Assembly (NCBI GenBank): GCA_043810165.1
Contig: JBDROJ010000027.1
Location: forward strand, 36,974 to 100,973
DNA from: a bacterium
GTDB lineage: Bacteria; Patescibacteriota; Patescibacteriia; Magasanikbacterales; GWA2-37-8
Direction of reading: 5' to 3'
Length of the DNA: 64,000 nt
Both the position numbers and the translations under genes were made by a program. The notes below the pieces were generated by a model. The model had not been told where the DNA came from and searched no databases. It worked only from the letters and a program-made list of their open reading frames with translations. Of the stretch, positions 3,990 to 55,768 are shown in pieces. The number at the start of each line of letters is the position of its first letter. Within the stretch, counting starts at the first letter, position 1.

Positions 3990-4382
3990 ATGCTGTCTCT
4001 GCGTAAAGAAACTGACTATGCCATACAATTTATCCAATTTTTAGTGGATAATAAAGATCAATGTTCTGCGCTGAAAACATTTGCCAAACAAAGCGGTATT
4101 TCTTTTTTCTTTATGCAAAAAATAGCGCGCAAGCTGAACAGAGCCGGTATAATTGAAGCCGAACAAGGCATGTGCGGAGGTTATCGCCTAAAAATTAAAC
4201 CGGATAAATTAGATCTGCACCAAATAGTAGAAATTATGGAAGAAGGGATAAGCCTGACCAAGTGCATTAAAAATTTAAGTTGCGGATGCAACAAAGGTGT
4301 AAAAAAATGCAAGGTTAAAGATATAATGAATAAATTAAATAAAGAAATCGTCAAGGCCATGAAAAAAATAAAATTAAATTAG
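3990..4382 (+). CDS. Rrf2-family transcriptional regulator (IscR-like)
   Basis: N-terminal wHTH typical of Rrf2 (SLRKETDYAIQFIQFL...SGISFFFMQKIARKLNRAGIIEAEQGMCGGYRL). A C-terminal Cys cluster (CIKNLSCGCNKGVKKC) fits an Fe-S ligand set. The gene sits directly upstream of iscS. Confidence 0.8.
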   Translation: MLSLRKETDYAIQFIQFLVDNKDQCSALKTFAKQSGISFFFMQKIARKLNRAGIIEAEQGMCGGYRLKIKPDKLDLHQIVEIMEEGISLTKCIKNLSCGCNKGVKKCKVKDIMNKLNKEIVKAMKKIKLN

Positions 4383-4410: not shown

Positions 4411-5616
4411 ATGCTTCCAAAACCAAAAGAAAAACAAGAAATATACCTGGATCATGCGGCCACCACATATATGTTGCCAGAAGTAGTAAAAGCCATGGAG
4501 CCTTTTTATATTGAAAAATATGGCAATGCCTCATCTCTATATAGCAAAGGCAGGCAGGCCAATAATATATTATTGGATTGTCGCAAAACAATTGCTGGCT
4601 TAATTCATGCTCAGCCTTTGGATATTATTTTTACCGGAGGAGGCACTGAATCTGACAATTTAGCCATTTATGGAATAGCCAAAGCGCATGAACAGAAAGG
4701 AAAGCATATAATCTCCATGGCCATTGAACACCATGCAGTTTTGCATCCATTGGAAGATTTGGAAAAACAGGGCTGGGAAATAACCTATATTAAAACCAAC
4801 AAACATGGCTTGATAGATCCAAAAGAAGTGGCCAAGGCAATTAGAAAAGATACGATTTTGATAACCATTATGTATGCTAATAATGAAATTGGTACCATCG
4901 AACCAATCGCAGATATTGGCCGGCAAGTATTAAAATATCGCAAAGCAAATAATACCAATTACCCATATTTTCATACTGACGCCTGCCAAGCAGGTGGTTA
5001 TTTGGATGTGGATGTGGAAAAATTACACGTTGATTTAATGACCATAAATGGAAGTAAAATGTATGGTCCAAAGGGCGTTGGCATGCTTTACGTGCGCCGT
5101 GGAGTTAAAATTAAGCCAATTATTTTAGGTGGATCTCAAGAAAGAAAATTGCGAGCCGGCACTGAAAATGTGCCTGGGATCGCGGGTTTTTGCAAAGCAT
5201 TTGAACTGGCACAGAAAAACAAAGATGGAGAAACAAAAAGAATAGGGGAATTGCGCAATTATCTTTGGGATCAAATCAAAAAAAGTATTTCTGATGTTAC
5301 GCTCAATGGTCCGGAATTAATTGACGACCTGCGTTTATCAAATAATCTAAACGTCAGCTTTAAAAATATTGAAGGTGAAGCAATGTTATTATATTTGGAC
5401 GAGTACGGCATAATGTGTTCAACCGGATCGGCTTGCACGTCTGATTCATTAGATCCTTCACATGTTTTAACAGCAATTGGTTTACCGGTAGAATTAGCTC
5501 ATGGAAGCCTACGATTTAGCTTCGGACACTGTAATACTAAAAATCAGGTTGATTATATTATGGAACACTTGCCAATGATAGTAAAAAAATTAAGAGAAAT
5601 TTCCGCAATTCAGTAA
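4411..5616 (+). CDS. iscS: cysteine desulfurase (IscS/NifS, PLP-dependent class V aminotransferase)
   Basis: Conserved PLP-lysine region TINGSKMYGPKGVGMLYVRRG and active-site loop CSTGSACTS. Length 401 aa. Confidence 0.9.
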   Translation: MLPKPKEKQEIYLDHAATTYMLPEVVKAMEPFYIEKYGNASSLYSKGRQANNILLDCRKTIAGLIHAQPLDIIFTGGGTESDNLAIYGIAKAHEQKGKHIISMAIEHHAVLHPLEDLEKQGWEITYIKTNKHGLIDPKEVAKAIRKDTILITIMYANNEIGTIEPIADIGRQVLKYRKANNTNYPYFHTDACQAGGYLDVDVEKLHVDLMTINGSKMYGPKGVGMLYVRRGVKIKPIILGGSQERKLRAGTENVPGIAGFCKAFELAQKNKDGETKRIGELRNYLWDQIKKSISDVTLNGPELIDDLRLSNNLNVSFKNIEGEAMLLYLDEYGIMCSTGSACTSDSLDPSHVLTAIGLPVELAHGSLRFSFGHCNTKNQVDYIMEHLPMIVKKLREISAIQ

Positions 5617-5858
5617 ATTATCGGATTATATTAATTATTACGATCCTTGTGTTTGTCCTCTGATTTGGGACAAGCAGTGTCGCATAAATAACTAATATAA
5701 TCCTATAATAAAATACCCTGAATTTTCAGAGTATTTTACAAAATCATCTTCAGATCTCCTTAATTAACCTGTAATTTAAAGATTAGTTAAGGGGATGGAA
5801 GCTGAAGATGGGCAAAAGAACAATCTGCTTCCGTAGATTAGGCACGACGGAGAATCCG

Positions 5859-6071
5859 TCATACACCCCAGACGCGCGGGTTGGGACAGAGGACCTCGAT
5901 CCTCGTAGAACTGAAGGTTCGCAAAAGACTTAAACATTCATTTGAACCACGTTCTTGAACTGGAGGTTTTCTGAACATGGATCGAATACGGCAAATATTT
6001 GCCACGCCTTGACGACACTTCTCGCAGTTGATCGGGAGTAAATCCCGAGGCGGATCGGCGACTTGTTTCAT
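5859..6071 (-). CDS. small Cys-containing hypothetical ORF in an antisense GC-rich islet (possible gene fragment)
   Basis: 70-aa ORF in a ~50% GC segment. Overlaps the upstream small ORF by 4 nt (ATGA). Contains CEKC...C. No family recognised. Confidence 0.25.
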   Translation of the reverse strand: MKQVADPPRDLLPINCEKCRQGVANICRIRSMFRKPPVQERGSNECLSLLRTFSSTRIEVLCPNPRVWGV

Positions 6072-6235
6072 GAATTTGTCTTCTCCTTTTTCCTCTTGTT
6101 GATCCTCAAGTTCACTGGATGATGTAGATCATAACGCCTGGTGTTTGGCAGGATATAGCGCTTAAAGAACCAGACCAGCGCATTCATCATCGCCTTGGTT
6201 GAATCTACCATGAAATCTGGTAGCCTAGGTATCAT
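6068..6235 (-). CDS. small basic hypothetical ORF in an antisense GC-rich islet
   Basis: The start was placed at the Met with ideal SD spacing (AAGGAGGAATGTCCATG) rather than the track start at 6292, which would abut the iscU start codon. Basic C-terminus NLRINKRKKEK. Confidence 0.3.
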   Translation of the reverse strand: MIPRLPDFMVDSTKAMMNALVWFFKRYILPNTRRYDLHHPVNLRINKRKKEKTNS

Positions 6236-6294
6236 GGACATTCCTCCTTTTTTGACAAACACCATTTTAATATATTTTTCAGACAAAGTCAATT

Positions 6295-6768
6295 ATGACT
6301 AAAAAAACAACTAAAAAACAATCAGGAAATAGTTCAGCTGACTTACGTGATCGCCAAGGCAATAGCTGGCTTTATTCTGATATAGTTAAAGAACATTTTT
6401 TCAATCCGCGAAACTTTATGCATCATGACGAAGAAAAAGAACTTGAATACAATGGCCAGGGCCGAGCCGGATCACCGGCTTGCGGTGATGAAATGATTAT
6501 GTGGATCAAAGTTGATACTAAAACAAATAAAATCAAAGATTGCCGTTGGCGTACTTTTGGATGTGGCAGTGCAATTGCTTCTACTTCAGTTTTAAGTGAA
6601 ATGATTACTGAAAATGATGGTATGCATATAGATCAAGCTATTAAAATTAAACCGCAAGATATCCTAGAACGCCTGGGTGGATTACCTGATATCAAAGTTC
6701 ATTGTTCTGTTTTAGGCGATCAAGCTTTACAAAAAGCAATTAAAAACTATCAAAATAAGCATAAGTAA
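6295..6768 (+). CDS. iscU: Fe-S cluster assembly scaffold IscU/NifU-like
   Basis: Three conserved Cys in the context GSPACGD, FGCGSAIASTS and HCSVLG, plus the LPPVK-like region. Length 157 aa. Confidence 0.85.
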   Translation: MTKKTTKKQSGNSSADLRDRQGNSWLYSDIVKEHFFNPRNFMHHDEEKELEYNGQGRAGSPACGDEMIMWIKVDTKTNKIKDCRWRTFGCGSAIASTSVLSEMITENDGMHIDQAIKIKPQDILERLGGLPDIKVHCSVLGDQALQKAIKNYQNKHK

Positions 6769-6831
6769 ACAAGAAGAGTTATATAATTTATTAAAGCGAC
6801 ACTTTCTGTCATATATCTAAGTGCAGGAACA

Positions 6832-7062
6832 ATGGGCATTATAAATTATATAATTCTTCTGAAACAAAATTTAATTTATATGACAATAACAATTGACCAA
6901 GAAAAGTGTATAGGCTGTGGCACTTGTGAAGCTTTGGCCCCTGAAGTTTTTAAATTAACACATGACGGCAAAATACAAGTGTTAAATCAAGACTCTGAAC
7001 AAGATGATATTGTTCAGATGACAGTTGATTCTTGCCCAACTCAAGCCATTATACTTGAATAA
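6832..7062 (+). CDS. small 4Fe-4S/3Fe-4S ferredoxin
   Basis: CIGCGTCEALAP...DSCP motif. The true start may be the internal Met at ~6880 (MTITIDQEKC), since the first 15 aa are hydrophobic and not ferredoxin-like. Confidence 0.7.
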   Translation: MGIINYIILLKQNLIYMTITIDQEKCIGCGTCEALAPEVFKLTHDGKIQVLNQDSEQDDIVQMTVDSCPTQAIILE

Positions 7063-34994: not shown

Positions 34995-35228
34995 ATGGAA
35001 GTAAGCTGTGAAATCCTGAAGTGGGATGAACTGAACACTCAGGATAAGGAACTAATTGCGCAGGCGCTGGAGGTAAGAAAAAAAGCCTATGCCAAATACT
35101 CCTCGTTCATGGTGGGTTGTGTGATTATAGACACAACCGGAACCTCTCATATCGGTCGCAACGTGGAACGAGCATCCTACTCTGAAACCACACTTTGGCA
35201 TCAGTCACTAACAAAACCGGGAGACTGA
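34995..35228 (+). pseudogene. cdd: truncated cytidine deaminase (cdd) remnant in a GC-rich islet
   Basis: ELIAQALEVRKKAYAKYSSFMVGCVIIDTTGTSHIGRNVERASYS matches the Cdd N-terminal half. The zinc-ligand CAER motif region is replaced by divergent sequence, and the ORF stops at 77 aa where ~130 is expected. Local GC is ~48%. Confidence 0.5.
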
Positions 35229-43474: not shown

Positions 43475-43492
43475 TATTAAGTTAGTATTATT

Positions 43493-43650
43493 CTGCCGTT
43501 GCGAGGAGTCAGGGTGTTATTGTCATTGCAAGCCTAAGCGACCCGCCTGCCAACGCCTGAAGTCAGAGGGCAATGACGGGCAGGAGCAATCTCATACTTA
43601 CTGTAGCAACGAGACTGCTCCGTCGCTACGCTCCTCGCAATGACGATGCT
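43493..43650. repeat. compound GC-rich palindromic repeat element (family 1, nested inverted repeats)
   Basis: Outer arms CGTTGCGAGGAG / CTCCTCGCAATGACG, with inner arms GTCATTGCAAGCC / GGGCAATGAC. Contains the 63-codon ORF 43452..43643, typical of repeat-derived pseudo-ORFs. Confidence 0.75.
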
Positions 43651-43679
43651 AATTTAAAAAGATTGGTATGATTTCAATA

Positions 43680-55354: not shown

Positions 55355-55749
55355 GGGGGTGTCGGGCTTCGACAGGAATATTTGTTATCACCGGCATATT
55401 GAGCTGGCTCCATGCTCATAAATCTCTGGGGCGCAAACACAAATGCAAATTTGTACACAAAAGCAAAAACAGCTGTTGCACAAATGTTCAATAGCTACAA
55501 CTTTGCTCCGGCAATGGCTTAATTGCCTATGCCCATCGCGCTGGCCATACCTAGTAACCAGTTGCGGTGCCACTTACCAGGCGTAGGTTAAAAATCGTTC
55601 TGATAGATTTTTAACTGAAAGCAAATATTAGATAGCTATTTAAGTTTTGGTTCTCTTCCTACTTAATTAGCAAATTAAACAAGAGAACTAAATATGTAGA
55701 AGGTATTAACAAAATTATCTGCACGCGGGTTCAACTCCCGCCACCTCCA
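55355..55749 (+). ncRNA. ssrA: tmRNA (ssrA)
   Basis: The 5' end GGGGGUGUCGGGCUUCGACAGG matches the tmRNA 5' consensus (GGGGCUGAUUCUGGAUUCGACGGG). The 3' end GCGGGUUCAACUCCCGCC-ACCUCCA-C forms the T-arm and acceptor stem. The 7-bp acceptor pairing (5' GGGGGUG with 3' CACCUCC) includes one G-U pair, as in E. coli. An internal reading frame ends ...NFAPAMA-UAA. Located immediately downstream of smpB. Confidence 0.75.
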
Positions 55750-55768
55750 CTAAAGGTATAAACATTAT

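Follow-up and report, generated by a model that had tools for sequence, protein, structure and literature searches.

A putative clade-specific small-protein gene, antisense to its neighbours, between iscS and iscU in Patescibacteria

In most relatives of the bacterium studied here, iscU directly follows iscS. Why are the two genes separated in this genome by 678 bp of DNA with open reading frames on the opposite strand, and what does that DNA encode? The window, by which we mean the whole 64-kb stretch that was analysed, comes from a Patescibacteria genome of 36% GC whose nearest named relatives are Candidatus Magasanikbacteria MAGs. Its gene order is thiI, an RNase-H-like exonuclease gene, iscR (Rrf2; 3990-4382), iscS, the spacer, iscU, a ferredoxin gene, a TP-methylase gene and metRS, where "spacer" denotes the DNA between iscS and iscU. 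Relatives share this order, and most add a glutaredoxin gene between thiI and the exonuclease gene. The upstream neighbour of the spacer is iscS, encoding a cysteine desulfurase (4411-5616, plus strand; Pfam Aminotran_5, E 2.4e-79), and the downstream neighbour is iscU, encoding a NifU_N scaffold protein (6295-6768, plus strand; Pfam NifU_N, E 3.1e-40). An earlier sequence-only reading of this locus had placed the end of iscS at 5616 and the start of iscU at 6295, and both coordinates were verified.

That reading saw the spacer as foreign DNA inserted into a conserved operon, and offered a toxin-antitoxin cassette, an IS remnant or a frameshifted gene relic as its origin. Its description was right and its explanation was wrong. 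The feature is real, conserved and lineage-restricted. Within the Magasanikbacteria-like Patescibacteria, a small sub-clade has kept the unit, whose most likely product is an orphan small protein that evolves fast. The full reading that we favour, with a probability of roughly 0.55, is that the spacer is a gene for such a protein, peculiar to the clade and divergently transcribed, with two cistrons in the window, and that it breaks the co-transcription of iscS and iscU.

The spacer in the window and in related genomes

The locus was compared with 160 iscS loci from GTDB representatives and JGI metagenomes, and with 11 loci around the closest IscS proteins. The closest non-carriers (L167, L168, L171 and L172, with 72-75% IscS identity) have gaps of 1-4 bp between the two genes; other close non-carriers have a gap of 97 bp (L165) or a short AT-rich spacer (L084). 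Given the 1-4 bp gaps, the claim of an insertion into a conserved operon stands, in that the short gap is the ancestral state. Besides the window, four loci carry the arrangement, with gaps of 400-460 bp and IscS identities to the window of 78% (L081), 75% (L082), 73% (L163) and 70% (L170). L170 and L163 are closer to each other, at 85% IscS identity. L164, which comes from another sample than L163, is identical to it over the 315 bp of spacer covered. None of the remaining large-gap loci in the set has the carrier arrangement.

When the window spacer was searched with BLASTN and nhmmer against 80 + 80 related iscS loci, no similarity was found, and BLAST found none to the gaps of the other carriers. 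The five carriers nevertheless have a common anatomy, consisting of a hairpin after iscS, a two-tier hairpin, a GC-rich body, an SD sequence and a minus-strand promoter. On an IscS neighbour-joining tree, which is not strongly resolved, they fall together with only L172 nested inside, and this grouping fits one ancestral gain and one loss. The sequence-only reading had set against its own account a picture in which relatives share the spacer, its ORFs are under purifying selection and its composition resembles the genomic backbone. Relatives do have a spacer of this kind and, in L163 and L170, an ORF under purifying selection, but backbone-like composition was found in none.

The earlier claim of foreign composition is borne out in so far as the GC content is atypical. 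In windows of 400 nt, GC averages 36.2% (sd 4.5), and the spacer core lies about 2.6 sd above this mean, at rank 5 in the window. A value of about 50% GC had been given for the whole segment, and this suits the core (47.8% over 5841-6240) and not the full 5640-6294 (41.7%). The window holds other GC-rich stretches. Positions 70-1321, at 52-57% GC, maybe form another foreign or orphan island, with two minus-strand ORFs (73-582, 169 aa; 866-1321, 151 aa) for which neither Pfam nor Rfam returned a match. In a 45% GC gap, a plus-strand ORF of 77 aa (34995-35228) matches only the N-terminal half of cytidine/deoxycytidylate deaminase (PF00383 positions 2-52 of 102) and is likely a truncated gene fragment.

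Two further differences among these loci concern the neighbourhood of the spacer. In L083 (70% IscS identity) the place of the antisense unit is taken by a plus-strand ORF of about 140 aa that is unrelated to it (1690-2130 of that locus), so the iscS-iscU junction seems to have received insertions repeatedly in the clade. IscU itself is 224-225 aa long in L081, L163, L165, L167, L168, L170 and L171, 164 aa in L082 and 157 aa in the window. A C-terminal extension of about 70 aa, widespread in the clade, is thus missing from the window protein.

Anatomy of the minus-strand unit

The unit has a predicted sigma-70-type promoter on the minus strand, TTGACT-17-TAAAAT (6264-6292), which matches the consensus at 10/12 positions and has its -35 element 2 nt from the iscU ATG. 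The equivalent site scores 12/12 in L163 and L170, 11/12 in L082 and 10/12 in L081. In the carriers, the minus-strand pattern TTGAC(A/T)-17-TAnnnT is the best promoter-like site of each region, with the -35 element 2-8 nt from the iscU ATG. On the plus strand, the AT-rich stretch of 60-80 nt before iscU has no good promoter site, the exception being a 9/12 site in L170. Transcription in the antisense orientation, as proposed in the sequence-only reading, very probably occurs, given this predicted promoter (6292-6264) and its retention in all carriers.

Two minus-strand ORFs follow in the window. ORF1 (6068-6235) has 55 codons, or 57 if it starts at 6241, and ORF2 (5859-6071) encodes a basic protein of 70 aa with the cysteine pair C16-x2-C19 and further cysteines at C27, C46 and C62. 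The ORF1 stop and the ORF2 start overlap in a common ATGA at 6071-6068, as had been noted, and the CxxC pair described for the second ORF is likewise present. The SD sequence of ORF1, which had been called perfect, is GGAGG at 6247-6243. Its distance to the ATG at 6235 is 7 nt, and to that at 6241 only 1 nt, which is why ORF1 is most likely 55 aa. The earlier sizes of about 56 and 70 aa are exact for ORF2 and need this slight correction for ORF1. ORF2 has its own SD sequence, AAGGAG at 6088-6083, 11 nt 5′ of its start.

Among the carriers, ORF1 occurs in the window only. L081, L082, L163 and L170 each have a single ORF and no ORF pair, with an SD sequence followed by 67-72 codons and an end 20-47 nt before the two-tier hairpin. 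ORF2 occupies the slot of this ORF.

Folding of the whole spacer gives z-scores of -4.6 (plus strand) and -5.5 (minus strand). This excess is due to three hairpins on the iscS side (5617-5709, 5709-5738 and 5745-5810), which account for the several local hairpins described earlier. With the hairpins left out, the GC-rich body folds with z of about 0. A structured non-coding RNA in the GC-rich core of the window was rejected on the same value, which holds for both strands once the terminal hairpins are removed.

The first of the three is a palindromic element of about 90 bp (5617-5709) directly after the iscS stop codon, an inverted repeat with AT-rich arms of 23 nt and a centre of 47 nt. It is not present in L081, L082, L163 or L170. 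A related, inverted copy lies at 6772-6860, in the iscU-fdx spacer. The pair has AT-rich arms of 20-23 nt and centres of 47-49 nt, and both centres contain GCGACACTnnnTGTC. The two palindromes may belong to a small MITE- or REP-like family, or may be terminator modules. The spacer insert (5640-6294) has no terminal inverted repeats at its ends, and the palindromes, which are window-specific, bracket iscU as well. A different fold was seen at 43480-43660 of the window, a GC-rich (about 47%) intergenic segment of 180 nt with a 13-bp closing stem (CGTTGCGAGGAGT / GCTCCTCGCAATG) and a fold z of -3.9. It matches no Rfam family and is a candidate structured RNA or palindromic repeat.

The second hairpin (5709-5738) is a short, A/T-flanked inverted repeat with 14-nt arms that are 93% complementary. 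A terminator scan over 5400-6500 returned no terminator-like site, and this hairpin fails the scan. The hairpin at the equal position in the relatives is called as a minus-strand terminator in four of four, and as a plus-strand terminator in L170 only. By analogy with these, the window hairpin is likely a bidirectional intrinsic terminator for iscS and the minus-strand unit. The earlier proposal that the insert cuts iscU off from iscS agrees with these terminator hairpins, the role of the one in the window being argued by analogy. A group IIC intron was also considered, since the insert follows a terminator, and was rejected with no intron match in Rfam.

The third hairpin is a two-tier structure of 66 nt (5745-5810) at the 3′ end of the minus-strand unit, made of an outer stem, a pyrimidine-rich 5′ bulge (CUUCC) and an inner stem. 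Its predicted folding energy is -22.5 kcal/mol (z -4.4) for the minus strand and -28.1 kcal/mol for the plus strand, where it is the more stable. The two-tier shape recurs in L081, L082, L163 and L170 with z-scores of -6.8 to -9.1; in L081, L082 and L163 the minus-strand fold is the stronger one. The 5′ bulges of the carriers, read on the minus strand, are CUUCC, CCGUUCAU, CAUU and UCCCU. The outer CAGC(U)/(A)GCUG pairing and the C-rich/G-rich inner pairs are kept, and the other inner-stem sequence differs completely while remaining paired. Between L163 and L170, one C-G pair has become A-U by a double, compensatory change. An integron attC site was considered for this bulged hairpin and rejected, as there are no core motifs and no integrase.

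Coding capacity and origin

Neither ORF1 nor ORF2 has a significant match in Pfam, NCBIfam, PHROGs or PADLOC, and a PDB sequence search for homologs returned no match. The conceptual fusion of the two ORFs across 6068-6071, which the sequence-only reading had proposed as a query, found no homolog at E<=0.1 in a word-indexed search of 5.8 billion proteins, and none at E<=0.001 in a full HMMER search of 1.84 billion cluster representatives. The spacer DNA has no second copy in the 64-kb window by BLASTN, and its only matches in 162 related loci, plasmids and phages are to itself or at chance level. A mobile-element origin was rejected because nothing in the phage or plasmid collections matched. 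A literature search found nothing relevant.

With no family, homolog or copy found, the toxin-antitoxin, IS-remnant and frameshifted-relic readings are left with no positive support. The window resembles a type II toxin-antitoxin locus in having two small co-directional ORFs that overlap by ATGA, and in its foreign composition. It differs in that there is no detectable toxin or antitoxin domain and no autoregulatory DNA-binding domain, and that relatives carry a single ORF. An IS remnant would be expected to show transposase similarity, a second copy in the window or a plasmid or phage match, none of which was found. A frameshifted relic would be expected to match a longer protein family once its parts are fused, and the fusion searches returned no such match. 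More broadly, the spacer could be a decaying remnant of foreign DNA, of any of these three kinds, with no present function. Its atypical GC, the two overlapping ORFs of the window and the adjoining palindromic element all fit such decay. However, lineages with almost saturated synonymous sites in IscS (pS 0.66) still have the consensus promoter, SD sequence, ORF length and hairpin, neither transposase nor repeated copies were found, and we regard a functionless remnant as highly improbable.

The case for a gene comes mainly from L163 and L170, the only pair at a useful distance for a selection test, and the coding signal holds for this pair only. Their ORFs have 69% amino acid identity, a pN/pS of 0.34 (Fisher p 5.6e-5) and no stops, and they differ by an in-frame indel of 3 nt. 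In four of the five other frames pN/pS is 0.83-0.98. The antisense frame that has its wobble position in common with the ORF gives 0.30, but it contains 4 and 2 stops. This frame-specific purifying selection, together with the absence of stops and the in-frame indel, indicates that the L163/L170 ORF is a real gene.

ORF length adds less. Dinucleotide shuffles of the window produce a same-strand ORF pair of at least 70 and at least 56 codons in 4.6% of cases (P = 0.046). Across the carriers, the shuffle P of ORF length is 0.03-0.2 per locus, or about 0.005 when combined by hand with Fisher's method. ORF length by itself is weak evidence for coding. The window ORFs are also not host-like in codon usage: their GC3 is 46-58%, against 32% in host genes, and their codon-usage score lies about 4 sd below that of in-frame windows of host genes.

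A C17xxC20-P...C36...C47 pattern is common to L082, L163 and L170; window ORF2 has C16xxC19, C27 and C46 against it, and L081 keeps one of the four cysteines. Window ORF2 has no significant similarity to the ORFs of L081, L082 and L163 by BLASTP or hhalign, and permutation z is below 2. The islands DPP, GS[ND]..C and RVW, picked out by eye between lineages, were within chance in permutation tests and were discarded. As no similarity across lineages is statistically supported, window ORF2 can be matched to the relatives' ORFs by its slot only. A profile of three of the relatives' ORFs had no match in 5.8 billion proteins, and searches of Pfam, PHROGs, NCBIfam and PADLOC with these ORFs were empty. 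The empty profile search is consistent with the fact that gene callers skipped these ORFs in every relative's contig.

Structure models of the window proteins are of low confidence. The AF2 single-sequence model of ORF2 has a pLDDT of 61, which is low, and a Foldseek search with it against the PDB gave no match below E=1. That of ORF1 has an overall pLDDT of 68, with residues 7-27 modelled as a helix at pLDDT 80-88, and ORF1 is predicted to consist of an N-terminal helix and a basic tail.

The coding signal has to be weighed against the possibility that what functions here is a minus-strand RNA that is not translated, or antisense transcription as such. Promoter and hairpin would then serve as an insulator or interference device and uncouple iscU-fdx from iscRS, with the ORFs incidental or coding in only some lineages. 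Only the promoter and the 3′ hairpin are recognisably conserved across lineages, in which the ORF sequences cannot be recognised. Between L163 and L170, the 3′ UTR and hairpin are 86% identical, whereas the ORF reaches 75%. The GC content has remained high although the unit seems to be inherited vertically, and the bulge of the two-tier hairpin is conserved as pyrimidine-rich though it is unpaired. A functional RNA would not by itself account for the frame-specific selection and in-frame indel in L163/L170, for an SD sequence and start codon correctly spaced at every locus, or for an ORF length held at 67-72 codons. The RNA body of the unit is no more structured than shuffled sequence in four of the five loci, and this argues against a structured non-coding RNA.

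Known RNA families were excluded with Rfam. With Rfam 15 at E<=1 the spacer has a single chance-level match at the iscS 3′ end (E 0.14, far under the gathering score), the relatives' spacers have none, and at the gathering threshold the whole window yields only a tmRNA elsewhere. The latter is an ordinary tmRNA gene on the plus strand (55355-55752; Rfam 134 bits; tag peptide ANLYTKAKTAVAQMFNSYNFAPAMA by ARAGORN). Given the coding evidence and the empty Rfam searches of the spacers, a non-coding product is unlikely.

A further puzzle is how fast the ORF has changed. Judged by the 69% ORF identity of a pair with 85% IscS identity, the ORF bodies have diverged far more than expected, while the promoter and the hairpin can still be recognised. 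ORF GC ranges from 43% to 68% across lineages in genomes of 35-40% GC, and the mRNA body is not unusually structured. One explanation is a conserved frame, made of promoter and hairpin, whose ORF body is replaced or turns over quickly, by cassette-like exchange or repeated de novo ORF birth, and this would explain the lineage-specific sequences and GC contents. The window, L081, L082 and L163 have IscS identities of 73-79%, yet their ORFs share nothing; the 69% kept in L163/L170 and the GC range fit as well, and a bulged, imperfect hairpin 3′ of a variable ORF loosely recalls a recombination site. But the relatives' gene tables list no recombinase or integrase nearby, and the hairpins of the window, L081, L082 and L163, read by eye, do not contain attC R′/R′′ core motifs. 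The ORF length is nearly constant and a CxxC lies at residues 16-20 in three lineages, neither of which suits replacement, and similar DNA was found nowhere else in the window or in the plasmid or phage collections.

We consider such turnover very unlikely as an account of the spacer. If ORFs were replaced rapidly in a conserved frame, the locus would be a hotspot of small-gene birth or exchange, set against the direction of an essential Fe-S assembly operon in streamlined CPR genomes and possibly tuning iscU expression; we think this a rather improbable prospect. The high GC of the ORFs, their divergence relative to the flanks and the stability of the two-tier hairpin on the plus strand are what keep the non-coding and the turnover explanations alive.

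A probable small-protein gene within the isc operon

In the reading that we prefer, a single fast-evolving small-protein gene, the minus-strand unit would be transcribed independently from a strong sigma-70 promoter set back-to-back with the iscU start, and its short leader would carry the SD sequence. It would encode a small basic protein of about 70 codons, usually containing cysteine. In the window, ORF1 and ORF2 would be translationally coupled, and we infer that both are translated. The unit would end at the large two-tier hairpin, followed by the hairpin read as a bidirectional terminator common to it and iscS. The window lineage would have gained the extra upstream cistron, ORF1, and the 90-bp palindromic element.

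Among known kinds of genes, the unit is most like lineage-specific sORF genes. It shares with them a size of 55-72 codons, an SD sequence, a strong sigma-70 promoter and a terminator hairpin, and, as with them, gene callers overlook it, no homologs are found and purifying selection shows between close relatives only. It differs in lying antisense inside the tightly coupled iscS-iscU pair, in a GC content far above that of its host, and in flanking signals that are more conserved than the coding body.

Our best guess is that the protein is a small metal- or nucleic-acid-binding Cys protein. Cys4 zinc-ribbon proteins, such as zinc-type ribosomal and rubredoxin-like proteins, are also basic, about 70 aa long and equipped with a CxxC and two more cysteines within about 30 residues, as in L082, L163, L170 and partly in ORF2. 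Unlike them, the proteins here have no second CxxC knuckle, no Pfam or PDB match and no confident fold, and L081 has lost three of the cysteines.

There are two ways in which the unit could affect the isc genes. First, iscS transcription would end at the common terminator, which would leave iscU-fdx dependent on read-through or on a promoter of its own that is weak or non-canonical. Second, RNA polymerase at an antisense promoter that abuts the iscU start could compete with iscU transcription. Cis-antisense regulation or interference is known in iron and Fe-S operons, with IsrR acting against isiA and RyhB on the iscRSUA mRNA. The predicted transcript here would likewise have opposite polarity within an Fe-S/iron cluster and could modulate downstream cistrons. 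It differs in that it would overlap no isc coding region and would carry translatable ORFs.

The finding opens no long-standing question. If it is real, a CPR lineage whose genomes are regarded as reduced to the bare necessities has one more unannotated small-protein gene, or two in the case of this genome. The finding would also mean that an antisense module can divide iscS and iscU, which are normally coupled, between separate transcription units. In that case it bears on the annotation of small ORFs in metagenome-assembled genomes and on the regulation of Fe-S genes in Patescibacteria.
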